Virus record (IMG/VR): IMGVR_UViG_2579778807_000004
Reading direction: 5' to 3' (one strand)
Length of the DNA stretch: 44,314 nt
DNA from: a virus
Taxonomy: Duplodnaviria > Heunggongvirae > Uroviricota > Caudoviricetes
In this document: positions 1,760-35,712 of the stretch, piece after piece
Layout: each line of letters opens with the position of its first letter
Numbering within the stretch: the first letter of the stretch is position 1
Made by a program: the position numbers and the translations under genes
The notes under the pieces: model-generated
The model's database searches: none
What the model saw: only the letters and a program-made list of their open reading frames with translations
What the model was told of the DNA's origin: nothing

Positions 1760-4700
1760 TATGCAAGCCTCACAATATAGTTAAATGCGATGTTTTTGAC
1801 GGTGTTTTCCGCGTTACCAGCAGCGTTAACGGTGATGGTGTGTCCATGTGAGCCAATCGCAACCGAGTGCGTATGAGCACCAATACCGACAGTATGTGCG
1901 TGTGCACCTGCGCTTGCAGCAGTGCCGGACAGTGAGTGGGTATGTGCGCCAGCAGATGATGTTGCATAGTTTTGATTATGCACAACAGACAATCTTGTTG
2001 ATGCACTACCAGCACCGGAGTTAGCACTAGCCGTGTTCACGTTGGCTAGTGAGTGTGTGTGTGCTCCAGCCGAGTTTGTAGAGCCGCTCACACTGTGTGT
2101 GTGTGCCCCGGTGTTATTCGTAGATTTAGTGCCGTAATCAAACGACGATGTGGTTTTCGTACCCAAATCCGTACTTGATGCGCTGGCGCTGTGGGTGTGC
2201 GATTTAATGCCGTCCTGTTCCTGAGACAATACGGCACGACCACTGGCGGGCTTGCCCTTAATCGTCCAGCCACGCATATCAGGGATCACGCCTGACGGAT
2301 AAGCAACTGCAAGTTTCGGGTATGCAGATTTGTCAAAAGTCTGCCCCTGCATCAGGGCATAACCAGACGGAACGGTATCTGATGGCCACGGAATTGGTGC
2401 GCCAACTGGGTAGCTTTCTGGTGGAAGATTTTTCGAGGTATAAACTTCTGCCCAGTCTTCCTCAAAACCATAACCGTCTCTTGAAGAACGGTAGAACAGA
2501 CCACCATTTCTGTAATGCGCCTTCATCTGCAGGGTCCGGCAACTTCCGACTCCGGTATAGAAGTTAACCAGAATATAGCTGTCGCCAGAGCGGGTGACAT
2601 TGTAAGCGCCTGATTCGGCATTCCATGGAACGCCACCATCCGCATCGGCATATGTATCCGTTGCCCTTCTGGCAAAAGCAGCCACATGCGCGGCGGTTAA
2701 AGTAATATCTTTGGAACCATCAAACTCAACACCAGAAACCAGTCTTGGCGTTTGCAGCTTTGTTGCTGTTAATGCATTACCGTTCAGACTTGCGGACAGT
2801 TTGGTTCCAATAACCAGTTCGCCGGTTGCGTTATCAATAGCAAACGGTCTTAATGTATTCCAGCCACCATAAACATCACCTTGATTGGTAAGCAGCAGGT
2901 AAGTTTTAGCGCCATCATTACGCCATAATGCACCATACTCCCCACCTATCATTCGAATCTGATTACCACCACGCGCTACAATTTCGTCTGTGGCAAAAAG
3001 TTTTTTGCACGACAAGTTATCGTTAACGATTAACGAATGAGACTCATAAAAACCACGCCCACTCTTAAAATCAAGGATAACGTCCGCCGCGATACATTCA
3101 GTCGCCGGATTTGTTGCCCCAAACTTATAGGTCGTATCATTAACAACGAGATCAGCACCAGGTGCGGATATTGACAGGCCATCTTCAATAAACGCAAAAA
3201 CAGGGAAAGCAGCGCCATCAACATAGAACACAGAGCGCAAATCATCGCCCTTATTACTCATCATTATTGAGTGAATGGCTCGTTCATTGTTTTGATATTG
3301 CCAGAACATGCCATAAGCATAACGCCCCCTGTCAGTCCAGCCACCAGGCATAACAAATCCGTTAAACTCGCAGTTATTCATCGGATCGCCTGCGGTTCGC
3401 GTTGCCGTGGTGATAATGACTCTTGATGCCAGTTCGCTTACTGAGCCAGCAGAACGCATAACAACAACAGGGTAATATTTTCCAGATGTTGCACCTGCAG
3501 GAGCGTTAACCCGCACATAACGCATACCACGCTTATCAGCAAAGTCTGTTTTACTGACCGCGTTAATGTTGTTCAGGAAGCATCCCTTATCGGGTATATC
3601 AGCGCCGTTCTGGTCTTTCTGCAGACGTTTCTCTGCATTGTCATAGGCTGATTTTACTGCCTTTGGCGTTGCCGCCAGCGTTTCAGACGTACTGTTGGTC
3701 GCACTGCTGAGCTGTACTATCCCCTTTTTCGTCGTACTTGCATCCTCAAGCGCCACGGCGGATGCAATATCCTCTGCCCGTTTTGCCGCTGTCTCGGCGC
3801 GCGTTGCCGCGGATTCCGCCGTACTTTTGCTCTGTGCTGCCGCCGTCGCACTGCCAGCTGCCTCTGTCGCCTTCGTGGATGCTGTCGTGGCGCTGCCCTT
3901 CGCTGCGGACGCTTGTCTGGTCGCCTCATCTTTTGAAGCAGACGCCGATGATGCCGATGACGCCGCCGAACTGGCGGACGATGCGGCAGCCGTTTTTGAG
4001 GATTCTGCGCTGGTTTCCGACGCTTTCGCGTTCGTCTCGGATGTCTTCGCTGCGGAAGCAGACCTCGCTGCTGCGCTGGCCTGTTCAGTGGCTTCGCCAG
4101 CCTTCGTTGTGGCTGTTGAAGCAGACGATGCGGCACTTTCTGCCGATTTTCCGGCGGCGGTGGCACTGGCTGAGGCCTGCCCGGCACTTGTTGACGCGGC
4201 ACTGGCAGACGACGCAGCCGCTGTTTTTGAGCCTGCCGCAGCCGAGGCGCTCTGTCCCGCTGCCGTTTCAGAAGACCTGGCGTTTGTCTCAGACGTCTTT
4301 GCCGCCTTCGCGGAATTGCCTGCCGCCGTTGCCGAGGAAGCGGCACTACTGGCGCTTGATGATGCGTTCGTTTCTGATGATTTCGCTGCCTCTTTTGAGG
4401 CCGCCGCATCCCGGGCTGAGGTGGCTGCTTCTGACGCCTTCGTGGTCGCGGCGGATGCAGAAGTGGCTGCTGATTGTTGTGACGCTGCCGCATTCGTTTC
4501 TGACGTTTTCGCCGCAGCGGCACTGGTAGCTGCCGCGCTTTTTGAGGACTCTGCAGCAGCAGCACTTTTCGATGCTTCACTGGCCTTTGTTGATGCCGTT
4601 CCTGCGCTGGAAGATGCTGACTGAGCCGACGACGCGGCCTGTCCGGCTGACGTGCTGGCTGCGCGTGCTGAGCCTGCAGCATCAGTCGCATGGGTTGCCG

Positions 4701-5121
4701 CCTCACGTGCTGATGTGCCGGCATCGCTGGCTGACTTCTTCGCGGCTGCCGTGTTCTGTGCCACCGCGGACGCGTTACGCGCCACCTCTTCCACCATCAG
4801 TTCAAAACGGCGCAGTGCCTCAGGACGGGCATCATCCTCCGTCATGGCACCGAGAAAATCATTCAGCGTACCGGGTCGGGAATCTTCATACACGGTGATG
4901 GTCCCGGCATGTGACGGCGGGAATCCCTCCACCAACAGAATAACGCTGTACTGCCCGTACTCAACGTCCATGCTGTAACGCCCGGCTTCATCCGGATTTT
5001 CTGAGGCCAGCGTGTTTACCACCACCGTGGTGCTGTTACGTTTTGCTTTCAGCTGGATTGTGCAGTTCTGTACCGGTTTTCCTGTGCCGTCTTTCAGTAC
5101 ACCTGAAATCTTTACTGCCAT
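1759..5121 (-). CDS. stf: Side tail fiber protein (mosaic; lambda-like N- and C-termini, different central domain)
   Basis: [26 protein letters not shown]... matches lambda Stf; long Ala/Ser/Thr-rich repeat; [26 protein letters not shown] motif; C-terminal GAHTHS His-rich repeats. Start set at third codon (ORF track extends to 5127). Confidence 0.9.
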
Positions 5122-5131
5122 ATTCACCCCA

Positions 5132-5159
5132 CAAAAAAGCCCGCCTGAACCGGCGGGCT
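5132..5159 (-). terminator. Rho-independent terminator downstream of lom
   Basis: Minus-strand hairpin GCCCGCC-GGTTCA-GGCGGGC followed by TTTTTTGT. Confidence 0.55.
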
Positions 5160-5185
5160 GTCATAACACTGTGTTACCTGGCTAA

Positions 5186-5785
5186 TCAGAATTTATAACC
5201 GACACCCACGATGAAACCGTCAGTGCGCCAGTCACCACTGCCGGAGCCTTCATAAGCAATATCAATGGCCACGGATTCGGTCGGGTTAAACTGCACGCCA
5301 GCCCCCCACGCCAGAGACGTGTTGCTGTGGCGACCGTCATCACTTCCGGTCAGCACATCGTGCTTTTTCCCCTTGTTGTCAGTTACGCGAAGATAATCCC
5401 CGGAGAAAGTCGACACACGGCTGTAAGCCACACCCGCCATCGCATACGCGCTGAACCATTCATTCACGCGCACAGACGGCCCCGCCATTACGCTGAACCA
5501 GCGGTTACGAACGGAATCTTCATGCCAGCGGGTATCGCTGTAACGGGTCAGCTGGCGATTCTTGTCTCCTGCATAGCTGAATGACGTCACCAGCCCCAGT
5601 GTGTCCGTAAACTCATAACGGTATTTCACGTTAATCCCGTTCAGATCATCACTGCCGGGGACGTTCGTCGAGGCATGAAGATACCCCGCGCTCAGCGTGG
5701 ACTGATGTTCAGACGCCCATGCAGGCGCACCGGATACGGCCAGACAAATGGCTGCGGACAAAATTGCTGCACAAACTTTACGCAT
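5186..5785 (-). CDS. lom: Outer-membrane protein Lom (Ail/Lom family)
   Basis: Essentially identical to remembered lambda Lom (MRK.CAAILSAAICLAVSGAPAWASEHQSTLSAGYLHA...GFIVGVGYKF). Confidence 0.95.
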   Translation of the reverse strand: MRKVCAAILSAAICLAVSGAPAWASEHQSTLSAGYLHASTNVPGSDDLNGINVKYRYEFTDTLGLVTSFSYAGDKNRQLTRYSDTRWHEDSVRNRWFSVMAGPSVRVNEWFSAYAMAGVAYSRVSTFSGDYLRVTDNKGKKHDVLTGSDDGRHSNTSLAWGAGVQFNPTESVAIDIAYEGSGSGDWRTDGFIVGVGYKF

Positions 5786-5807
5786 AATTACCTCTCGCTT
5801 TTCTGCA

Positions 5808-5838
5808 ATAAAAAAGGCGTCATTCCTGACGCCCTTTA
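5808..5838 (-). terminator. Rho-independent terminator between J and lom
   Basis: Hairpin GGCGTCAGGAATGACGCC flanked by A/T runs on both sides. Confidence 0.5.
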
Positions 5839-5855
5839 TTGGGGTTATAAATATT

Positions 5856-8800
5856 TCAACGAATACTGATGCCGGAAGCGGCTTTTTTGGTCACAATCAC
5901 CGTACAGTCGGTGATATTGCCTGCCCCCTGATTGCCTTTCTGGAAAATCTTAAACTCCAGAGTGACGCTTCCCCTGCCACTCGGCATATCAATAACTGCA
6001 CTGTAACTACCGGGAATGGCCCCTTTAGTTTCTCTGGATGCGATTAATACGCCGTTTTTGCGAACTTCAAAACCATAACCCGTGTATCTTGTACCTCCCG
6101 GGTTATTACCACTTCCCGGATCGCTATACGCTATTCCGTTAAAGATAATGGGCGGAATAATGATTTGACGGTCAAAGTTATGATCATCGCTGATGGTGAC
6201 TGTAACCGTCCCGTTTGGTGTTTCCGTATTACCCCACGTACCAGCCTGTTTCGGGAATGATTTGGATACAGCTTTAACGAAGTCACCTCTGACCTGAGTC
6301 GCCTCCAGCATGCCCTTAATCGTACAGTTTTCATTTACCGTGACATTGTTGAGCGTCCCGGCGTTCGCATTCACACTGCCACTGATATCGGCATTTTTCG
6401 CCGTCAGCCGCCCGTCCGGTGTCAGGGAAAATACCGGAGGATTACCGCCGCTGGTAATGGTGGGAGCCGTCAGGCGTTTCAGGAACACTTCGTTCATGAA
6501 TATCTGATCGCCCTGCCCAACAAACATCGGCTTTGTGTTGCCATTCGCAGGATTAATCATCGCAATCCTGTCTGCCGCCAGCAGCACCTGACTCTGCATG
6601 CCGTCAGGGGTGTTCTCAATACCGGCACCAATACCCGCGATATAAAGGCGTCCGTCCTGCATCTGCTGCAGCTTCACAGCCCACATGCTGTTCAGGTTAT
6701 TATTTGTATCAACCTGAACCTTCTGTATCTGCTGAATTGCCGCACTCTGGTCTTCCAGTTTCTTATTGACGGTCTGCGTGATTTCATTGCTGACATCCGT
6801 AATGGACGTCCTGATTTCAGCCAGGTCAGGCGCAAGCTGACCGTTATCAATCTGCGTCCACAGCTCCTGAGCCAGATGGGTTTTCCCTATCTCGCCTTTG
6901 AAAAAATCCAGATAACCGGATGCATCATCACTCGGCTGACCAACAGCCTCCACGAATGCCGATTTGCCAACGGTGTTCACACTGCGGATATAAAAGTAAT
7001 AATCATGGCCCGGTTTGATATTGATACTGGCGGCTATCCAGTACAGCGCCGTGCCAAGATAGCGTGCTGTGGTTTCAACCTGCCTGATATCCGCAATCCG
7101 CTTTTCCGAGAACCAGAACTCAAACTGTACCGTCGGGTCATAAACGGCAAGATGCGGCGTGGCGGTTATCTGAAAATAGCCCGGCGTCAGCTCAATCCTC
7201 GACGGTGCTGCCGGTGCGGCAATCCGGAACGATACCGACGCCGGATCGCCCTGCTGTCCCCAGGCATTTGCCGCCCGGACTGTCAGCCTGTAGTTTCCCA
7301 GCGCCAGCTGCGTGAAGCGGTATGTGGTTTCCGTCGTCCGGGCCGTGCTGACCAGCCGCTCACTGCCGTCATCCGCTGCCACGGTCAGGCGAAGCATAAA
7401 GCTCACACCCTTCACCACCTTCGGCGTGTCCCAGCGCGCCAGCACCTGGTATTCACCGCTGTCTGCGGTGACTTCTGCGGTCAGGTGCTGCACCGCTGGC
7501 GGCGTGACACCATTCACCGTGCCGCTCTGGTCGCCGTCAAAGTGCGCCCCGTTATCTACGATGGCCTCTTTTTCCGGTACATGCTGCACGGCGGTGATGG
7601 CATACGTGCCGTCATCGTTCTCACGGATACTCACGCAGCGGAACAGGCGCTGGCGCAGCGTCGGCAGCTTCAGCCCCCATACGCTGTATCCGGCAACGCC
7701 GTCAGGAACACGGCTCACTTTTACCTTCACGCCGTCGGTGACGGACTGGACCTCCACGCTGACCGGATTGCCACTTCCGTCAACCAGGCTTATCAGCGTG
7801 GTACCGGAGGATGGCAGCGTGATTTCACGGTCGAGCGTCAGCGTCCGGGTCTGGCTGTTCACAGCCAGCACGCGCCCGCCGATGCTGATCCCCGCATAGT
7901 CATCATCGCAGATTTCAATAACATCACCCGGCACATGGCGAAGCCCTTCTGCGCCCACGCTGAAGTCCACGGTCTGCGTTTCCAGCAGTTCTGTTTTAAT
8001 CAGCCACAGCCCGGCGCGGTGCGCCTGCCCCCGGCTGGTACAGCCAAAGGCATCCATTTTCGTGACGTTACGACCGTAACGGGCAATGGCCTGCGTGTCC
8101 TCCACAAGCTCTGTCGCCGTCTCCCAGCCGTTATTCGGGTCAATCCAGTTCACCTCAACGGCATTATGGCGGTCCTTCAGGGCGCTGAAGCTGTAGCGGA
8201 ACGGCGCACCATCATCCGGCATCACCACATTACTGCGGTTATAGGTCCACACCTTATCCGACGGTCGGTCCTGCACGAACGTCAGCGTCTGCCCGTTCCA
8301 TACCGGCATACAGCGCATCGCAGAGCAGAAATCACTGAGCACATCCCACGCCTTGCGCTGTGTGGTCAGGTACGCATTACAGGTGATGCGCGGCTCCGTG
8401 CCGCCAAAACCGTCCGGCACCGACTGGTCGCAACACTGGCCGATGACATACAGCGCCCATTTATCCACATCTTCCGCACCAAGACGTTTACCCATGCCGT
8501 AGCGCGGGTGGGTCAGCATATCCCACAGACACCAGGCCATGTTGTTGCTGTATGCTGGCTTAAACGTTCCGTCCCAGATACCGCTGTATTGCCGCGTCTG
8601 CGGGTTATAATTCGACGGCACCTGCAGAATACGCCCGCGCAGATGATAATTACGGCTCACCTGCTGGCTGCCGAACTGCTCCGAGTCCACCTGCACGCCG
8701 ACCAGTGCCGTGTTCGGGTAGCCCTGTTTCACATCGATAATTTCGGTGTATGACGACCAGAGCGTTTTGTTCTGCAGCTGGTCTGTGGTGCTGTCCGGCG

Positions 8801-24874: not shown

Positions 24875-25081
24875 TCAGTCAACCACCAGGGAATAATCCT
24901 TCGTATTCTTATCGTGCTTTACTAACGCGGCCTCAATTGCCCTGAATGCTTCCAGAGATACTTGATGTTCTATACATGCAATTACAACATCCGGGTAACC
25001 CATCGAAATGGTGCTATTAAGCATAGTTTTTACACGAACCTGCTCCTGGGAGGGGGCATCAGTGTATTGATCTTTATGCAT
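24875..25081 (-). CDS. Hypothetical small protein (post-lysis cargo region)
   Basis: 68-aa ORF in same orientation as neighbours; no recognisable family. Confidence 0.35.
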
Positions 25082-25376
25082 TTTGTCGCTCCATTCGTTT
25101 GCTCTTCACTTGCGGCTAAAAATATAACGTCAAATCACTCAGCATGAAAGAGTGAAAGTTTCAGCGCGTTTCCCTTACATAATCTGTCGTTTGTATTCTC
25201 TTCAGGCATACCGGAAAGACTAGGTATTGTCACATAACCAATACCATCGACAATCGAGATTTATATCTATTCGGTAATGTTTAAATATAACAAAACCCCG
25301 TAAAAACGAGGTTTATGGGTAATTTGTATTGTTGAATAGCATCTGATGAGAAATTGATGCTAATACTATAAACATG

Positions 25377-25550
25377 CTAGATTAAATCAATCTTGATATC
25401 ATAGCTTTCAAGACCAGTCATTTTTTCCCGTGCAGTAAACTGGATACTGGTAACTTCTTTCCCGGTCTTTTTCTTAAGCTCAATGATTTTTTTTGTTATA
25501 TATTCAGAAATATCTGCTTCTGTTTTTGTTTTTAACTCTTCAATGTTCAT
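25377..25550 (-). CDS. gnsB: GnsA/GnsB-family protein
   Basis: MNIEELK...KEV..I.FTAREKMTGLESYD.KI matches remembered GnsB; AGAGGA ribosome-binding site before ATGATG. Confidence 0.65.
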   Translation of the reverse strand: MNIEELKTKTEADISEYITKKIIELKKKTGKEVTSIQFTAREKMTGLESYDIKIDLI

Positions 25551-25722
25551 CATTTCCTCTTTTAGTCTGTTATGACTGTCCTGGTACACAGTAGTGTCAA
25601 TTATATGGAGCAAACGTATAAAAGATAAGATGAAACATCGCAATAATCAACATACGACGGTCTAAATTTCACACAAACAGATAAAGATGATTATCATTTA
25701 TTATCAATGCATTAGAATCAAA

Positions 25723-25950
25723 TCAATTCAAGAGTCTCATTGCTGCTTCCAGAATTTCTTCTGAAGTTACATGTCGATCCGCTGCTACATAAATGACTTT
25801 ATGATCTCCGGTCAGAGATGGAAACCCTGCGGCCATTACAGTAAGGTGTGTTTTTTCGCCATTTGGATATTCACGCATGATGGTGTTAACTCCAGTCATC
25901 GCTGGCACTACCACTGCTGGTTCAGAGTTAAAAAAAACTATGATTTTTTT
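25723..25950 (-). CDS. Hypothetical protein (ynfN-position)
   Basis: ORF MKKIIVFFNSEP... between gnsB-like and csp genes. Confidence 0.4.
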   Translation of the reverse strand, partial: KKIIVFFNSEPAVVVPAMTGVNTIMREYPNGEKTHLTVMAAGFPSLTGDHKVIYVAADRHVTSEEILEAAMRLLN

Positions 25951-26224
25951 CATGATGTTACCGTAGTATGTGAGTATCCATCGAATAGATACCAAGCAAA
26001 AAAGCTCCCGAAGGAGCCTTCATTTTCACTTTTTTAAATCCAACGACAGACGGCTGGCATTTAAGTATTGTGAAATATTATCAAATGTAATCATCATTGA
26101 TTTACAAAAGATACATTTTGCCCCGAAAGGATTCATGTCAGAAACATCAAAAGATGATGTTCTATACTGGGAACCATGACAACACGGGCATCTAAAGTGA
26201 ATATGGTTTGTAATATTGTCTACC

Positions 26225-26437
26225 TCAAAGCGCCACTACATGAACAGCGGCAGGACCTTTAGGTCCGTTCTCAATACCAAATTCAACTTCCTGATTCTCA
26301 GTTAATGTTTTGAAATCGTTGCTCTGAATTGCTGAGAAATGGACAAACACATCTTTGCTGCCATCTTTCGGCGTGATGAAACCAAAACCTTTTTCAGGGT
26401 TAAACCATTTCACTAAACCAGTCATTTTGTTAGACAT
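26225..26437 (-). CDS. Cold-shock protein, CspA family
   Basis: [35 protein letters not shown]... canonical cold-shock domain; long AT-rich 5' leader upstream. Confidence 0.92.
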
Positions 26438-26800
26438 AATTATTACCTTTTGAAGAAATTAGCCCTTGGGCAGAATGGTCCGAAAAAAAATATCAGAGAG
26501 AAAAACCAACAAGGAAATCTCAAGAGGTACAAATAATAAAATTATAACAATGACTGCTTCAGATAAATTTGTAACAAACCAGAACACCATTAACGCATGA
26601 TTAACCACCCATAGCAAGGATTACTTTTGTAAAGAAAAACACAGCAATGAAAGAATAGCTTTATTTATTAATAATAACGTGTCATTCTGATTAAGACCTT
26701 TTATCTTACCCTTAAGATTTCAGGAATTTTGGCTCATGGAAGAGTCCTTTTTATTTAAATTTTACATTCCGCGATGTAAATGTTCCGATTTAATATTACC

Positions 26801-27824
<1,024 letters not shown>

Positions 27825-28140: not shown

Positions 28141-28356
28141 TTACTCTCCTCTCGCAGCCTTACGCCTGTCTTCTTTAATCTTGAAATAAAGATTTGTCAG
28201 ATACGTCAGCATGCCAAATACCAGACTACCCAATACACCTATTGCCGCCCACTGTGAGGGCGTGACTTTATCGAGCAACTGTAAAAACCAGTAGCCAGCA
28301 CTGCCTGCAGAGGTGCTGTAGGCGATGCCCGTTGTTAACTTATCCATGGATTTCAT
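28141..28356 (-). CDS. Holin, phage-21 S-type pinholin with dual-start motif
   Basis: [71 protein letters not shown] closely matches remembered S21; 71 aa; track ORF extends upstream. Confidence 0.9.
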
Positions 28357-28546
28357 AGCCTCACCTCCGCAGATAACGGATGGTGTACACGGTTTGGTTC
28401 GAAGAAGGAAAGAAGTTACATTAGCGTAAGGCCCGAACATCTATTCAAAAAGAAAAACGCCAGCAATTATTCTGGCGTAGCTAAAAATATCGTATAATCT
28501 TACACTTCAAAAAATAACTTTATAAAATGCCATCACATCATATCTT

Positions 28547-29269
28547 CTAAGAAAATCTTGATAAATATTGGTGCGGAGGCACACCAAAATATCCTCTAAA
28601 AACACTTACAAAATATGATGCATTGTCATACCCGCATATTCCCGCCACCTTGCCGACAGTATGGTTACTGTAGATCAATAATCTTTGCGCCATCATCATT
28701 CGTTCTTCAAGAATTAATTTACTAAACGATAATCCTTCGTCTTTTAATTTTCTTTTTAACAAACTCTCGCTCATATATAATCTTGAAGATATATCACAAA
28801 GTCTCCATGACGCTGAGATATCCGAGTGAATAATAGCCTTAACTTTACAACCTAAGCTATTAAGACTTCCGAACAAAAAACTTTGCACTATTTTCTCTGA
28901 AGATAAGACAGCAAGACATGCAAGTGATATTTGATTTCTAACTACATCCACGGTTTTGCTATCACAATTCAAGCATGCAACCAAGTTCTTTAACAATGAA
29001 AAATCTTCACATTCTACTATCAAGTATGACGGATAAAACCTTCTTACAGAAAAAGGTGAGAGTGTGTAGTTTTTAAAGAAATCATTAACTGTTTTCTCCT
29101 CAACATCTACGATCATTAGATGATCTGTATTTGACGAAAAAAGATCTTTTAAATTGTATTCAATGAGGACAGCATTTCCTTTTTTAAACAAAATATCTTC
29201 TTTACCAATTCGGACACCAAACGAGTTCAACACCAAAATGATAGAACATATGTATGGCATATTATCCAC
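28547..29269 (-). CDS. AraC-family transcriptional regulator (AT-rich cargo gene)
   Basis: C-terminal AraC-type HTH (...GKVAGICGYDNASYFVSVFRGYFGVPPHQY); AT-rich codon usage unlike phage core. Confidence 0.8.
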   Translation of the reverse strand: MDNMPYICSIILVLNSFGVRIGKEDILFKKGNAVLIEYNLKDLFSSNTDHLMIVDVEEKTVNDFFKNYTLSPFSVRRFYPSYLIVECEDFSLLKNLVACLNCDSKTVDVVRNQISLACLAVLSSEKIVQSFLFGSLNSLGCKVKAIIHSDISASWRLCDISSRLYMSESLLKRKLKDEGLSFSKLILEERMMMAQRLLIYSNHTVGKVAGICGYDNASYFVSVFRGYFGVPPHQYLSRFS

Positions 29270-29666
29270 CTGATATCATTGGGGTTACACCAGGTAAGTA
29301 TAGGTGGAAAATCAATATTCGCCAGTTCAACAATAAGGAAAATCTCATTGCATCACAACTATAAAACCATGTGTTTAACTCACAAAAAACAAATCATTAA
29401 ACTAATCTGTTATATTATAATAGCTGCGTGCAATAATAATATTATATGCTCTTAATATTCACTTGAAATATCTTCATATAAAAACAGATTGAATAAAATC
29501 TTTTGGGGCTGGTATGTTTACCAACATTAAATTGCATCTCAATGTTTTCTTTAGCGTGAACAGGATTTTTATACAAACTGACACTATGGGCATCATAGCG
29601 TAGTTTTTACGATTGTAAATATCCTGCATACAGGAACTCATCACTTTCAGATGATATCGCATACAG

Positions 29667-30626
29667 TTAATTCACCATCAGTCTTAGAGCCAGTTCTTCC
29701 GGATAGGGATCGAAGTAATTCTGTGTAAGCAAGTAATCATTAGGATACTCACCCAGATAATGCTTCAGCAGAGTCAACGGCGCAAGAAGAGGCAATGTGC
29801 CAAAGCGATAGTTAAGTATAACCTCGCTCAACTCTTTACGCTGGCGTGTACTTAAGTAATTACTAAAATACCCCTGTATATGCATCAGCACATTCGTGTG
29901 ATTTTTACGTGATGCTGGTTTTCTGAGAATCGCCATCAGATTATCACGATACACCTCAAAGTATGATTCAAGGTCCGCCCACTCGTGTATTGCAGCCACA
30001 AATGGTCCCATATCTTTATAGCCTGCCTGGCTATGCGCCAACAACTGAAGCTTATAACGACTATGAAAAGCTAATAACTCTCTTCTTGATAATTTCTCCT
30101 TGTAAAGATGATTGAGCTCATGCAAAGCAAAAACTCTTTCAATAAAATTCTCACGAAGCACTGGATCATGTAATCGCCCATCCTCTTCAACCGGTAGCCA
30201 GGAAAACTTTTCCATCAAAGTGCTCGTAAATAGTCCCACTCCATCTTTACGACCTCGATTACCATTTTCATCATAGACACGCACGCGCTCCATGCCACAG
30301 CTGGGAGATTTAGCACAAACCACAAACCCCGATACATCCTTTAATTTGTCCATATAAGAACGACTAAACTCTGTCATTCTCTCTGTCACATCCTCATTCT
30401 GGTCGTGGCTGAAACACATCCGTATATTTCCTTGCTTCGAGCGCACAAGTCGTAGAGCAGGACGCGGAACTGGCAGCCCTATAGCCATTTCCGGACATAC
30501 TGGTCTGAATGTTACCCATTCCACTAATTTGTCCATTAAAAAGTCATCTCTTTTGTGACCACCATCAAAACGAACAGCAGAACCGCCCAAACAACCGCTG
30601 ATCCCAATCACAGGTTTTTTTATCAT
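29667..30626 (-). CDS. DUF523/DUF1722 two-domain protein (YbgA-like; N-terminal domain resembles TudS-type Fe-S proteins)
   Basis: 319 aa; N-terminal Cys-containing motifs (ISGCLGG, CPE, CAKSPSCGME) then YbgA-like C-terminal domain; recalled from memory. Confidence 0.55.
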   Translation of the reverse strand: MIKKPVIGISGCLGGSAVRFDGGHKRDDFLMDKLVEWVTFRPVCPEMAIGLPVPRPALRLVRSKQGNIRMCFSHDQNEDVTERMTEFSRSYMDKLKDVSGFVVCAKSPSCGMERVRVYDENGNRGRKDGVGLFTSTLMEKFSWLPVEEDGRLHDPVLRENFIERVFALHELNHLYKEKLSRRELLAFHSRYKLQLLAHSQAGYKDMGPFVAAIHEWADLESYFEVYRDNLMAILRKPASRKNHTNVLMHIQGYFSNYLSTRQRKELSEVILNYRFGTLPLLAPLTLLKHYLGEYPNDYLLTQNYFDPYPEELALRLMVN

Positions 30627-30818
30627 TTCCTCCCCCTTGACTAATTCATTAACACATAAACTTTGTAATGCACGGACTAAATTGCCTTTCTGGCTTCATC
30701 ACTGACAATTTTTCTGTTATGGACTATTCCTAATATAGTAGGAAAGTTCTTTAAGTGATCGGTCGTACTCATCTATCTTTCATACTTACTCTCAACTATC
30801 AAAAGTACAGGATTTATT

Positions 30819-31343
30819 ATGAAGTTATGGCCTGTGTTGACTGGCATTGCACTCTCTTTCACTCTTATAGCATGTAAGGCCCCGACACCACCTAAAGGTG
30901 TGCAGCCGATTACAAATTTTGACGCCAACCGCTACCTCGGAAAATGGTATGAAATAGCTCGCCTCGAGAACTGGTTCGAACGTGGTCTGGAACAAGTCAG
31001 CGCTACTTATGAAAAACGGAACGACGGAGGGATTCGCGTACTTAACCGTGGATACGATCCAACGAAAAACAAATGGAGCGAGAGCGAAGGTAAAGCATAC
31101 TTTACTGGAGATACTAAAACTGCAGCGTTGAAAGTTTCGTTTTTTGGCCCCTTCTATGGTGGCTATAATGTAATCAAGCTGGATGATGAGTATAAGTATG
31201 CTCTTGTCAGTGGTCCGAACAGAGAATACCTATGGATTCTGGCAAGGACCCAAACTATTCCAGATAATGTAAAAGCAGACTATGTGCGTACCGCTCAAAA
31301 GTTGGGATTCAATGTCAATGAACTATTATGGGTTAAACAATAA
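30819..31343 (+). CDS. Outer-membrane lipocalin (Blc-like)
   Basis: Lipoprotein signal (LIACKAP) and strong similarity to remembered E. coli Blc (NFDA.RYLGKWYEIAR...FERGLE...KVSFFGPFYGGYNVI.LD.EY..ALV.GP.R.YLWIL.RT). Confidence 0.88.
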   Translation: MKLWPVLTGIALSFTLIACKAPTPPKGVQPITNFDANRYLGKWYEIARLENWFERGLEQVSATYEKRNDGGIRVLNRGYDPTKNKWSESEGKAYFTGDTKTAALKVSFFGPFYGGYNVIKLDDEYKYALVSGPNREYLWILARTQTIPDNVKADYVRTAQKLGFNVNELLWVKQ

Positions 31344-31360
31344 AATCCCCACCCGAAATG

Positions 31361-31388
31361 ATACTTATTAGAAAAAAACCAGCCTTTG
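31361..31388 (-). terminator. tR'-like late terminator downstream of Q
   Basis: Minus-strand hairpin CCAGCC-TCCCCAAA-GGCTGG followed by TTTTTTTT, ~110 nt downstream of Q stop. Confidence 0.6.
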
Positions 31389-31498
31389 GGGAGGCTGGCT
31401 AAATCAGGAAACAAGCTGTTATATGATAATAACTACGTTGCGATTCCAACATTTAAAATGTTAGACTAATGAAAATCAGACAGCAACTTTTCCTTTGA

Positions 31499-31876
31499 TT
31501 ATTTCGAACAATCAGCATCCATCTCCAATCGGAGATCCAACACCATCAGCATGCCCTCCACTACGCCCTCAGCTTTCTGGAGCATCCTGCCAACCCAACA
31601 ATCAGATCGCCCATGCTTACGTGCAAGCGCCATAAAAGTCATGCCGCCGACATAATAGTCCACCAATAAATCATGTAAATCGCTGTTGTTTTTTTTCAGG
31701 CGAGCCATACATTCACAAATGATCATCGCGTCATCGTCACAGCATTGCGGACGAGATCTTACTTTTGAAGGAATTAATCCCTTAAAACCGGCGGCAATGG
31801 ACGACCAGGTCACATCTTCATGATTATTAGCCGCCCATGCCCCCCAACGCTCAAGAACCATCTGAATATCACGCAT
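31499..31876 (-). CDS. Late-gene antiterminator Q (QuuD/QuuQ-type)
   Basis: [39 protein letters not shown]... matches remembered QuuD-type antiterminators; track ORF starts with TTG 5 codons upstream. Confidence 0.8.
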
Positions 31877-33553: not shown

Positions 33554-33769
33554 CAGAATCCTTCCGGATAATTAGCTCTCCCCTTTAAGGGACCATCCCT
33601 CTTCTCCCTGCGCGCTACTTAAGTATTTTTGATTCTATTCCGGCACCGTCCAGAACTTCAAACGCGTTGAAAATAAAAACAAAAACCCGCCGAAGCGGGT
33701 TAAGTGCGGGTGCGTTGAGGATGCCTGCCACATCAGAGGTGGCGAGGGATTTCTCCCTCGCCGGGTCTC

Positions 33770-33925
33770 TTACTCCTCAGGTTCGTAAGCTGTGAAGACA
33801 GCGACCTCCGTCTGGCCGGTTCGAATTCGTACCTCGCAAAGGTCTTTCCTCGTTACCAGTGCCGTCACTATGACGGTTAAACAGATGACGATCAGGGCGA
33901 TTAACATCGCCTTTTGCTGCTTCAT
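33770..33925 (-). CDS. hokD: Hok/Gef-family membrane toxin
   Basis: MKQQKAMLIALIVICLTVIVTALVTRKDLCEVRIRTGQTEVAVFTAYEPEE matches remembered HokD/RelF; 51 aa. Confidence 0.85.
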   Translation of the reverse strand: MKQQKAMLIALIVICLTVIVTALVTRKDLCEVRIRTGQTEVAVFTAYEPEE

Positions 33926-34155
33926 AGCCTGCTTCTCCTTGCCTTTCGGCACGTAAGAGGCTAACCTACATGTGTCTAGCATGAAATTGGCCTCAGATTA
34001 ATGTTAAGCGTCTTGCAGGACGCGTAATGTTAACTGGGGCTTTTCTCTATCTGCCTTTGGTGTTCATGCCTGAGACAGATAGCCTCAAGCACCCACGGAA
34101 ACTTTACTAAAGGAGTTATAGCTTTTCCAGTAGTCTCAACATATTCACATTGCTA

Positions 34156-35712
34156 TTACCTATCAAACAACGGATGTATTACAAAATCTCTCTTCATATC
34201 AGTAATATCCAAATTAGGTTTATCAAAAGATGAATATATAATTAAAGATGCTGTTTTCCTTATGCCAACCACGCCTACGACGAACCAGACTTTAAGTAAC
34301 TCCTCAAAATTCATCAATATTTTTGTATGTTGATCATCCTCTTTAACTACAGTCAATCTATCAAGTAAATGCTGCGATATATCATCTTTTACTGCTTGTC
34401 CTATGTTTGAGACTGTAAAATCAGAAAATGAAATCAAGGAAAGCACATCCAAATATTCTTCGATAAACGGATATATGCTTTTCCATTCTGTAACCAAAGC
34501 TCTCTTTCTGGACGAATAAAATTTCTCTTCGGCAATTAACACAATATTTTCATTCATGTTAACCATACCATCGCACTCAGAAAGACATATATTTACGAAA
34601 TTAATTGCATCTCTAGGCCTAAGCATTGTTCTGTCAAGGATATAATCATCTGCTCCAATACCTTCAACTGTAAAATTAAAAATATCCTTCATTAATACAG
34701 ACTTATTTGATTGATATCTATTTTTAACCAAATGGTTAATTCTAGCATCAATAATCTCTCTTATTTCCGTTTTATTCCATGATATGGAATATATTAAAGA
34801 TTGATCTTTCTCATCCTGCCTTAAACTACTTTTATAAATTCCCATTAAAATATCTGTTCTTATTGATATCAGAACCTTAACCGACTTTATATCTAATAAT
34901 TCTCGAAAGGCCTCAAGAAGAGCATTAATAAAGTCATATCTGATGGCGCTCGTGCTTAACCAAGATTTATCTAAATCATCGATACTGATTACTATTCTAA
35001 CCTGGTTTGAGTCAGCGAACTCCTCTTTAAGTATTTTAATAAGTTCTTTTTGTTTAAAAAGAAGTTCACGACTCACATAACTTGAAGTTTCTGATTGTAT
35101 TTTGGCTGTATCAGAATTAGATATTTTACCACCCACACCAACAGCGGAATTTCCGAGTTTGAATGACAAATCACTTTCAAGCTTGTTACTTATTTCAATG
35201 AGCGCTTTATCATTGAAGAAATTTTCTTTAAATTGTTCAATATAATCATTCGCAACTTCTGGTTTATACGGTTTCTTCTTACCACCAATAAGATCTTTAA
35301 TTTCCTCAAAAAAGCTTTGATAGGAAGAACGATAAACGGCTGGTATAACTTTCATAAGTAATACATGCAGCCATAACGATTTATAAAACCCACGTAAATC
35401 TATCCCTTTCGAGATCAAATCAGATATAAACACATTGTTATTAATATGTTCAAATATCGTATTTTCTGCCTCTATTGTGTCATGCAGCTTAATATTTCCT
35501 TTGTCTAATATTTTTTTAAGCAACGCAGACTTACCGCTTCCTGTTCTTCCAACAATAATTCTTCTTGTAAAATCAGGATTCTTCTCAGTAGAGTCAAAAT
35601 TCACAATACCTTTAAAAACATTGGACTCATAAAAACAAGCATCAAGATAAGAATCAGTTTCCGCCTCTAATTTTCCAATCTCATCATTATTTCTGAATTT
35701 ATAGGCATTCAT
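34156..35712 (-). CDS. P-loop NTPase of unknown family in an AT-rich island; candidate standalone anti-phage defence / abortive-infection protein
   Basis: Walker A IVGRTGSGKSALLKKI near N-terminus; Walker B-like VRIVISIDDLDKSW ~185 aa later; Arg-containing motif RTMLRPRD; strikingly AT-rich versus flanking phage genes; occupies the relBE-equivalent hotspot. Confidence 0.7.
   Translation of the reverse strand: MNAYKFRNNDEIGKLEAETDSYLDACFYESNVFKGIVNFDSTEKNPDFTRRIIVGRTGSGKSALLKKILDKGNIKLHDTIEAENTIFEHINNNVFISDLISKGIDLRGFYKSLWLHVLLMKVIPAVYRSSYQSFFEEIKDLIGGKKKPYKPEVANDYIEQFKENFFNDKALIEISNKLESDLSFKLGNSAVGVGGKISNSDTAKIQSETSSYVSRELLFKQKELIKILKEEFADSNQVRIVISIDDLDKSWLSTSAIRYDFINALLEAFRELLDIKSVKVLISIRTDILMGIYKSSLRQDEKDQSLIYSISWNKTEIREIIDARINHLVKNRYQSNKSVLMKDIFNFTVEGIGADDYILDRTMLRPRDAINFVNICLSECDGMVNMNENIVLIAEEKFYSSRKRALVTEWKSIYPFIEEYLDVLSLISFSDFTVSNIGQAVKDDISQHLLDRLTVVKEDDQHTKILMNFEELLKVWFVVGVVGIRKTASLIIYSSFDKPNLDITDMKRDFVIHPLFDR

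Follow-up and report, generated by a model that had tools for sequence, protein, structure and literature searches.

A probable lysogenic-conversion island with a predicted tRNA 4-thiouridine eraser in the stx-equivalent slot of an Escherichia coli prophage

Between the antiterminator gene Q and the holin gene of lambdoid phages lies a slot that can house cargo such as stx or nmpC, and the prophage described here raises the question of what a different set of genes does in this position, where it came from and whether it serves the phage or its host. The window under study, a stretch of 44,314 nucleotides from IMG/VR virus record IMGVR_UViG_2579778807_000004, corresponds to a full-length lambdoid prophage at the Qin site (beside rspB) of the E. 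coli chromosome. At positions 28547-31343, it carries a lipocalin gene (blc), a gene for a RudS-type protein (rudS) and a gene for an AraC-family regulator (here called araC). The list of open reading frames gives exactly the three genes that a first-pass annotation, made from the sequence alone, had described at this site, with the same strands, and an island 100% identical to that of the window is found in strain YZ3E2001. We favor the view, which we regard as probable rather than assured, that this region represents a composite moron, or lysogenic-conversion island, which occupies the stx-equivalent slot of a Q933-like late operon and acts by the mechanism outlined below.

The middle gene of the island encodes a protein with an N-terminal 2-thiour_desulf/DUF523 domain (PF04463, residues 7-149, 5.8e-40) and a C-terminal DUF1722 domain (PF08349, residues 192-309, 9.4e-40). 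In an alignment with TudS (6Z92), its residues Cys12, Cys44 and Cys110 correspond to Cys10, Cys43 and Cys104, which bind the [4Fe-4S] cluster of that enzyme, in agreement with the earlier description of a two-domain protein with TudS-type Cys motifs. The same three positions are given for RudS_vir (gp66 of Escherichia phage 1H12), to which the window protein is 92% identical in a gapless alignment with 26 substitutions. Moreover, Glu46 (CPE), Arg55 (PRP) and Ser107/Ser109 (SPSCG) correspond by motif and offset to Glu51, Arg60 and Ser111/113 of RudS_KT, and Ser239/Arg240 are located at the offset of the tRNA-contacting residues Ser243/Arg244 of this enzyme, a mapping made by offset rather than by alignment. 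Judged by these sequence features, the protein previously labeled 'YbgA-like' is RudS, a member of the tRNA 4-thiouridine (s4U) desulfidase family. The gene is intact in all 80 viral contigs compared and evolves under purifying selection, with a ratio of nonsynonymous to synonymous substitution rates (dN/dS) of 0.14-0.22.

RudS is a TudS-DUF1722 fusion that takes 4-thiouridine off tRNA (Jamontas et al., NAR 2024; PMC11417400). RudS_vir was among the enzymes assayed, and all of the variants reduced the level of s4U in tRNA when overexpressed in E. coli; Cys mutants of RudS homologs were inactive, and RudS_KT was inactivated by mutating its catalytic Glu, Arg and Ser residues (PMC11417400). With free bases, RudS_vir conferred weak growth rescue on 4-thiouracil and none on 2-thiouracil; no variant matched TudS in growth rescue, and none used 2-thiouracil (PMC11417400). 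The biochemical assay on thiolated nucleobases that the first-pass annotation had proposed has thus in effect been done, because a 92%-identical ortholog of the window protein was assayed, with tRNA emerging as the key substrate. RudS_KT was found to cut the growth delay caused by ultraviolet A (UVA) light from ~105 to 60 min, and E. coli is said to be without RudS, which is offered as the reason why its UVA-induced stringent response is stronger than that of Enterobacter (PMC11417400). Prophage carriage of RudS is not discussed in that study, and a search of the literature available to us for papers combining 'RudS' and 'prophage' found none. At its native levels, the phage enzyme may likewise act on host tRNA.

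The island and the elements that frame it are arranged as follows:

31499..31876, minus strand: Q antiterminator gene (125 amino acids from the PGAP start; open reading frame to 31891), the upstream boundary of the island
31458..31486, minus strand: tentative candidate for the late promoter pR' (TTGCTG, 17-nucleotide spacer, TAACAT)
31370..31400, minus strand: tR'-like intrinsic terminator in the late leader (9-bp stem and T7 run, from a terminator scan)
30819..31343, plus strand: gene for a Blc-type lipocalin lipoprotein (174 amino acids)
29667..30626, minus strand: gene for RudS (TudS/DUF523 plus DUF1722; 319 amino acids)
29592..29619, minus strand: promoter-like site upstream of araC (TTTACA, 16-nucleotide spacer, TATGAT)
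28547..29260, minus strand: gene for the AraC/XylS-family regulator (237 amino acids from ATG)
28447..28478, minus strand: intrinsic terminator in the araC-holin gap (7-bp GC-rich stem and T-run, from the terminator scan and the sequence)
28141..28356, minus strand: class II (P21-type) holin gene (open reading frame to 28440), the downstream boundary of the island

The late genes on the minus strand follow the order ydfU (DUF968), Q, island, P21-type holin, DUF1327, lysozyme and Rz, after which come a cspI/gnsB block, the terminase and the HK97-like head and tail genes. Pfam searches support the proposed placement between Q and the lysis genes, identifying Q upstream (PF06530, 8e-51; PHROG 79, 'anti-termination protein Q-like') and a P21-type holin (PF04971, 6e-34; annotated as essD/essQ), DUF1327, lysozyme and Rz downstream. 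Within this array, the lipocalin gene runs toward Q, antisense to the late transcript. The island had been described as AT-rich, and a composition check gave a guanine-cytosine (GC) content of 31-44%, compared with ~55% for the structural genes, but the bias is uneven: it is strongest in araC (33.5%) and the 406-bp region upstream of it (31.5%) and milder in rudS (43.1%) and blc (43.8%), with 38.3% for the island as a whole and 54.9% for the structural genes. Two further blocks of the window, at ~25-27 kb and 34-36 kb, are equally AT-rich. PADLOC matched none of the three island proteins, and a reading of the region as a defense island was dropped.

Several observations define the slot. Q shares 79-83% identity with its counterparts in Stx1a- and Stx2a-converting phages, and the 155-bp spacer between Q and blc shows 97% conservation among alleles that diverge by ~9% in their cargo. 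The late leader RNA folds with a z-score of -3.8, and its tR' hairpin is 78% identical over 54 nucleotides (E 4e-5) to the one that the 933W-species phage Stx2a_F422 has between Q and its tRNA/stx2 genes. Since both Q and the leader terminator are homologous to those of 933W-type phages, the island sits in a position equivalent to that of stx, so that the likening of this site to the toxin slot of Stx phages can be taken literally. The hexamers of the late promoter are less certain. In the pR' candidate, the -35 element is invariant in four alleles and the -10 element is TAATGT in 1H12 but TAACAT in the other three; a consensus promoter scan did not flag it, similarity to DLP12 ends at the Q stop codon, and the 933W-type phage can be aligned just over the terminator. 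In the absence of pR' homology to either of these phages, we treat the assignment as tentative. Q-dependent read-through of rudS and araC would fit both the layout and the homology of the region, as would the rewiring of host expression by the AraC protein that the first-pass annotation suggested. An Rfam scan of the interval 25-34.5 kb yielded, inside the island, just a sub-threshold match on the terminator hairpin.

To assess how widely the island is spread, 5426 complete E. coli genomes were searched. Any match was found in 1154 genomes, and at least 80% of the island was covered in 883. The Q-blc and araC-holin junctions occur in 1076 and 975 genomes, respectively, compared with 3571 genomes for the Q family and 4578 for the holin, which argues against core status. 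Most Q-family matches represent quuD of DLP12 (~85% identity), and the Q allele of the window (at least 93% identity) is nearly always followed by blc. The island is thus accessory in the lambdoid gene pool and almost fixed within its own Q lineage. By identity, its matches form two main classes, and it resides on at least two backbones, a Qin-site HK97-like and a lambda-like one; it is also present in isolated phages, with 12 phage records matching. Among the viral contigs, 72 of 80 show the complete order Q-blc-rudS-araC-holin. Insertion sequences (IS) are common in the island, and purifying selection acts on all three genes (dN/dS 0.09-0.22).

Where the cargo originated is suggested by its chromosomal relatives. 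A survey in which one genome per species was scanned for RudS relatives returned 62 loci outside E. coli, spanning Citrobacter, Enterobacter, Leclercia, Kluyvera, Klebsiella, Pectobacterium and other genera, with RudS proteins 66-76% identical to that of the phage. A divergent lipocalin gene lies upstream of rudS in 42 of the 62 loci, and its product is 68-80% identical to the phage lipocalin. The order in 36 of these loci is blc(-), a MlrA-like MerR gene (+), a transthyretin-like gene (+) and rudS(+), and in two others blc(-) directly adjoins rudS(+), as in the phage. An araC gene was found in none of the 62 chromosomal loci. Because the divergent pairing recurs in chromosomal loci, always without araC, it is probably an old one, and blc and rudS were probably captured together, as a unit, from such a locus. 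The regulator gene appears to be a separate, later addition, since it differs in three respects: its synonymous divergence (dS) between the window and 1H12 is higher (0.59, as against 0.21-0.29 for blc, rudS and Q), its alleles are shuffled among viral contigs, with RudS alleles of 98% paired with AraC alleles of 86%, and its homologs are essentially confined to E. coli.

The chromosomal clusters merit attention in their own right. The example at positions 4021-6960 of locus L028, together with 35 others among L007-L070 from Enterobacter, Leclercia and Citrobacter, includes a transthyretin/HIUase-like member. The MerR neighbor has been mentioned for E. cloacae, with a proposal of light-inducible control, and the lipocalin and transthyretin-like genes are not mentioned there (PMC11417400). 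A search of the literature available to us returned nothing that connects, in enterobacteria, a lipocalin with LitR or with light regulons, and footprinting of the blc-rudS spacer against the spacers of Citrobacter and Enterobacter revealed no convincing conserved operator or promoter. Phage rudS has a GC content of 43%, compared with a mean of 57% (range 47-62%) in chromosomal homologs at 66-76% protein identity. Two short contigs from a 'Candidatus Nanosynbacter' metagenome-assembled genome (L059 and L064) also carry the island, at 92-98% protein identity, an occurrence that almost certainly reflects binning contamination.

The lipocalin belongs to the Lipocalin_2 family (Pfam, 7.5e-43) and passes the cut-off of the NCBIfam Blc subfamily (NF007786; 312.6 bits, cut-off 267, residues 1-174). 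Its N-terminus, MKLWPVLTGIALSFTLIAC, contains a lipobox (L-I-A-C19) followed by Lys at position +2, which, by the +2 rule of the Lol system, assigns it to the outer membrane. The earlier view of a Blc-like outer-membrane lipocalin encoded on the opposite strand therefore stands as far as family and strand are concerned, but the protein is not the Blc linked to ampC: its locus is not beside ampC/gdx, and identity to E. coli Blc (3MBT) is 63% over the mature part, while identity to K-12 Blc is 59%. The 39 RudS-linked chromosomal lipocalins, by comparison, show a mean identity of 78% to the phage protein and of 64% to K-12 Blc. Given this higher identity to RudS-linked lipocalins than to K-12 Blc (78% versus 59%) and the different synteny, the sequence comparison places the phage lipocalin in a RudS-linked paralogous clade rather than among orthologs of the ampC-linked blc. 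The gene is intact in 78 of the 80 viral contigs, with a dN/dS of 0.09-0.17.

For the regulator, a GTG at 29269 would give 240 amino acids, but PGAP and the alignment of homologs favor the ATG at 29260 and thus 237 amino acids. The assignment to the AraC family holds, as the protein has a C-terminal double helix-turn-helix region (HTH_18, 3.1e-16; HTH_AraC, 6.1e-11) and is matched by the DNA-binding domain of GadX (3MKL) at 4e-21. The best NCBIfam model is YdeO (112 bits, cut-off 348); as every equivalog cut-off was failed, the protein is an ortholog of none of the NCBIfam equivalogs. Over its full length, it is 48% identical (237 amino acids) to the regulator of prophage CP-933H of O157, 33% (233 amino acids) to GadW, 30% (238 amino acids) to AppY and 29% (229 amino acids) to YdeO. 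A candidate homolog considered with PsrA/PsrB in mind (P0026, 35% identical to the AraC protein) proved to be a plasmid fimbrial regulator. The counterpart in 1H12, gp67, is 77% identical (PHROG 1450). A search of 5.8 billion proteins retrieved few homologs, essentially all from E. coli, which form an allele series of 99, 85, 76, 60, 50 and 48% identity; at its 48% end stands a 247-residue AraC protein from the cryptic prophage at ~309 kb in O157:H7. The CP-933H regulator is probably PatE (z0321), as judged solely from its genomic location (OI-8/CP-933H). In the portions of the literature available to us, PatE, PsrB and AppY are described as activators of acid-resistance genes (gadE/hdeA-type promoters).

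Unlike rudS and blc, for which no such promoter match was found, araC is bracketed by a promoter-like consensus match and a terminator. The promoter-like site (TTTACA-16-TATGAT) scores 10/12 in the consensus scan and falls into a block (columns 62-89) in which all but two positions are invariant, within a four-allele alignment that is otherwise diverged and interrupted by indels. The predicted 5' leader of araC is ~320 nucleotides long and AT-rich (29261-29591), with indels varying its length to ~230 nucleotides in 1H12, and the Rfam scan of 25-34.5 kb offers no riboswitch or small RNA as an explanation for it. A block within this leader, TTTCCACCTATACTTAC, is conserved ~45 nucleotides before the start codon and may represent a site of post-transcriptional control. 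The terminator at 28447-28478 would prevent araC transcription in the lysogen from running on into the lysis genes, and the arrangement of putative promoter, gene and terminator resembles that of a classical moron. The dN/dS of araC is ~0.2.

Integrating these observations, we propose the following mechanism. A chromosomal stress locus in the Enterobacteriaceae would have supplied blc and rudS together, in a single capture, with araC added separately. In the lysogen, the [4Fe-4S] TudS domain of RudS, guided by DUF1722, is predicted to turn s4U at position 8 (s4U8) of host tRNA back into uridine, and the loss of s4U8 would lower the tRNA photo-crosslinking that underlies near-UV growth delay and the stringent response. 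The lipocalin would be exported as an outer-membrane lipoprotein, made off the strand opposite the late operon, like lambda bor. The AraC protein may be made off its own promoter, on a transcript that stops at its own terminator, and it probably activates AT-rich, H-NS-silenced promoters, for instance those of acid-resistance genes, in a manner similar to PatE, AppY, GadW and YdeO. Upon induction, Q-modified RNA polymerase would pass tR', cross blc in the antisense direction and then rudS and araC in the sense direction, before passing the second terminator and entering the lysis genes. The sequence data directly show the family of each gene, the catalytic residues, the gene order, the spread among genomes, the purifying selection and the homology of the terminator; the expression pattern just outlined, like the targets of the regulator and the role of the lipocalin, is what we infer from the arrangement and the relatives of the genes.

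Several points weigh against this interpretation and temper our confidence in it. Among the enzymes assayed, RudS_vir displayed the weakest tRNA activity per protein level and the shortest lag on free 4-thiouracil, and the UVA phenotype was demonstrated only with RudS_KT and only upon overexpression (PMC11417400). The GC gap between phage and chromosomal rudS genes (43% versus 57%) speaks against these homologs as the direct donor, unless the gene has undergone long adjustment to phage composition. Within the 192-bp spacer separating rudS and blc, the consensus scan found no promoter match for either gene, and promoter-like matches overall are about as frequent as in shuffled sequence (13 versus 12.0). 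The regulator shares just 48% identity with the protein that is probably PatE, from which it departs at several positions of the second recognition helix. In addition, some carriers have a frameshifted or incomplete araC, as do ~11 of the 80 viral contigs, some of the latter cases being contig-end cuts. Disruption of araC beside intact rudS and blc suggests that selection on the regulator is weaker or conditional. Individual instances include strain WP2-W18-CRE-03 (L158, 13981-14711), with a frameshifted araC and intact rudS and blc, and a recurrent allele covering ~85% of the protein in several viral contigs with intact rudS and blc (L107, L109, L116, L118, L119 and L126).

These points lend weight to other explanations. 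RudS could chiefly serve the phage during lytic growth or induction, being produced from the late Q-dependent transcript and keeping tRNA free of UVA crosslinks, and the removal of the s4U 'brake' might permit the SOS response and induction under near-UV light. Such a role would suit the position of rudS on the late strand downstream of tR', with no sigma-70 consensus in its upstream spacer, as well as the fact that the chromosomal gene ends a MerR-led operon whose regulator the phage copy has lost; it would also accord with the reduction of the UVA growth delay by RudS (PMC11417400). We nevertheless find it doubtful, if worth keeping in mind, because expression late in the cycle leaves scant time for demodifying the large tRNA pool, activator-dependent and sigma-S promoters escape consensus scans, and the antisense orientation of the lipocalin gene implies that half or more of the captured unit needs expression in the lysogen. 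A related possibility, to which we likewise give limited credence, is that the AraC protein acts chiefly locally, replacing the lost MlrA-like MerR protein and switching on blc, rudS and perhaps araC itself, rather than rewiring acid resistance in the host. The chromosomal blc-rudS loci indeed come with a regulator of their own that the phage lacks, araC is the neighbor of blc-rudS in phages, as seen in 72 of 80 contigs, and the missing promoter consensus before rudS and blc is compatible with activator dependence. However, araC has a history different from that of blc-rudS and recombines independently, it is broken in some carriers in which rudS and blc are intact, and its characterized relatives act on host regulons.

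Alternatively, the phage enzyme might, like TudS, mainly act on free thiolated bases or nucleotides, such as 4-thiouracil or 4-thiouridine monophosphate (4-thio-UMP) from RNA turnover, with tRNA as a secondary substrate. The short 4-thiouracil lag of RudS_vir among RudS enzymes and its low tRNA desulfuration despite good solubility point in this direction, but all variants lowered s4U in tRNA and none rescued growth in the manner of TudS or used 2-thiouracil (PMC11417400). Taken together with the retention of the tRNA-binding DUF1722 domain under purifying selection and the presence of Ser239/Arg240 at the expected offset, this makes a preference for free substrates quite unlikely. The lipocalin, in turn, could be a surface lipoprotein that serves the phage, for instance in superinfection exclusion or envelope/serum protection, like Bor or Cor/Llp, and have no connection to RudS. 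As with lambda bor, the gene for this outer-membrane lipoprotein is read from the strand opposing the late operon; moreover, 1H12 possesses both bor and this lipocalin gene. Still, we judge this unlikely, given that the nearest relatives of the protein are chromosomal and paired with rudS in 42 of 62 loci outside any phage context, which argues for a shared cellular stress role. Finally, the island might be non-functional DNA that hitch-hikes through its linkage to the Q allele. Its tight association with a single Q allele, the frequent IS insertions and the occasional decay of araC to a pseudogene are what such a scenario would produce, but dN/dS values of 0.09-0.22 over alleles with a dS of 0.2-0.6, the intactness of RudS in 80 and of the lipocalin in 78 of the 80 viral contigs and the retention of the island in particle-isolated phages render it highly improbable. 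On balance, we retain the interpretation of the region as a composite lysogenic-conversion island.

Elsewhere in the window, a second AT-rich cargo block (34156-35712, minus strand, 30-37% GC) encodes a 518-residue KAP-family P-loop NTPase (PGAP 'Sll1717 family'), which PADLOC does not match; its gene is flanked by hokD/sok on one side and by the replication/immunity genes on the other. The corresponding place in strain PigCaeca_1 is taken by an IS1-flanked gene for a DUF4209 protein, so that this slot looks variable and is possibly defense-related. The third AT-rich block (25000-27000, 36-37% GC), downstream of Rz, comprises cspI, ymcF, ynfR, ynfN and gnsB, with a full Rfam match to the cspA thermoregulator RNA at 26198-26583 (112.8 bits). 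A hokD/sok toxin-antitoxin locus is located within 33680-34094 (Rfam sok, 118 bits at 33920-34094), and an isrK-like match at 33680-33761 stays below threshold (25.7 bits versus a gathering score of 50).

All three protein families, the slot and the orthologous phage enzyme are already known. What appears to be new is the prevalence of prophage-borne RudS in E. coli, the conserved pairing of lipocalin and rudS and the composite origin of the island. Strains of E. coli differ in whether they possess a predicted tRNA s4U eraser, with 21% of the complete genomes carrying a prophage-borne RudS, and the prophage content of a strain could consequently alter its behavior under UVA and solar disinfection as well as tRNA measurements based on s4U. 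The island ties the epitranscriptome to lysogenic conversion, in that a predicted eraser occupies the Q933-type late slot that drives Shiga-toxin expression. The lipocalin-rudS pairing across the Enterobacteriaceae may help to give this lipocalin clade a function, and the regulator joins the group of prophage AraC proteins (PatE, PsrA/B and AppY) that tie in with the stress networks of the host, occurring in commensal and environmental E. coli besides enterohemorrhagic strains. A more far-reaching idea is that prophage RudS strips s4U8 and thereby makes about one in five E. coli strains 'blind' to near-UV light, with neither tRNA crosslinks nor the stringent growth delay, such that sunlight, uncoupled from the stringent response, induces the prophage while translation continues for virion production, with the lipocalin acting in the same photo-oxidative stress regulon. 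The growth delay that depends on s4U is reported to suppress the SOS response. Caldeira de Araujo and Favre, in EMBO J in 1986, are said to have observed near-UV induction of the SOS response just in s4U-less cells. The notion of sunlight induction tuned by RudS builds partly on this observation, and we rate it as rather improbable; if it were true, the survival of the host in sunlight would be changed.

How the island relates to known systems is best appreciated by comparing its parts in turn. The closest relative is the corresponding locus of 1H12, whose RudS_vir matches the window protein in length (319 amino acids), TudS+DUF1722 architecture and Cys12/44/110 triad, and in which the neighbors are the same (Q, lipocalin, AraC-like gene and holin), whereas the backbones differ, with the window representing a Qin-site HK97-like prophage and 1H12 being lambda-like. 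The chromosomal MerR-transthyretin-like-rudS operons share with it the divergent orthologous blc and rudS genes (70-80% protein identity), but the phage version is without the MerR and transthyretin-like genes, has a GC content of 43% versus ~57% and has gained araC downstream; the LitR-phrB-rudS light operon of Pseudomonas can be grouped with these MerR-rudS operons as a known relative. The lipocalin resembles E. coli Blc (1QWD, 2ACO and 3MBT) in its Lipocalin_2 family membership, its score above the Blc cut-off, its lipobox and its similar length, and it is set apart by an identity of 59-63% and its membership of the clade whose genes accompany rudS in Enterobacter, Leclercia and Citrobacter.

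Similarly, the regulator is AT-rich, like the genes for PatE, PsrA, PsrB, AppY, GadW, GadX and YdeO, and prophage-borne, like the first four of these. It aligns collinearly from end to end with the probable PatE, GadW, AppY and YdeO, sharing the N-terminal motif 'M..CS[VI]I' and the first recognition helix SESLLK[RK]KLK[DE]EG, but it diverges from them in the second recognition helix and in the location of its gene, within the late operon beside the holin gene. As in the stx locus of 933W-type phages, the cargo is inserted between tR' and the holin gene, behind a homologous Q and leader terminator, and as in the nmpC slot of DLP12, whose quuD is 85% identical at the DNA level, the next gene after Q is an oppositely oriented cargo gene. 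Whereas those slots contain tRNAs and a toxin or a porin, the one described here holds a predicted tRNA eraser, a lipocalin and a regulator.

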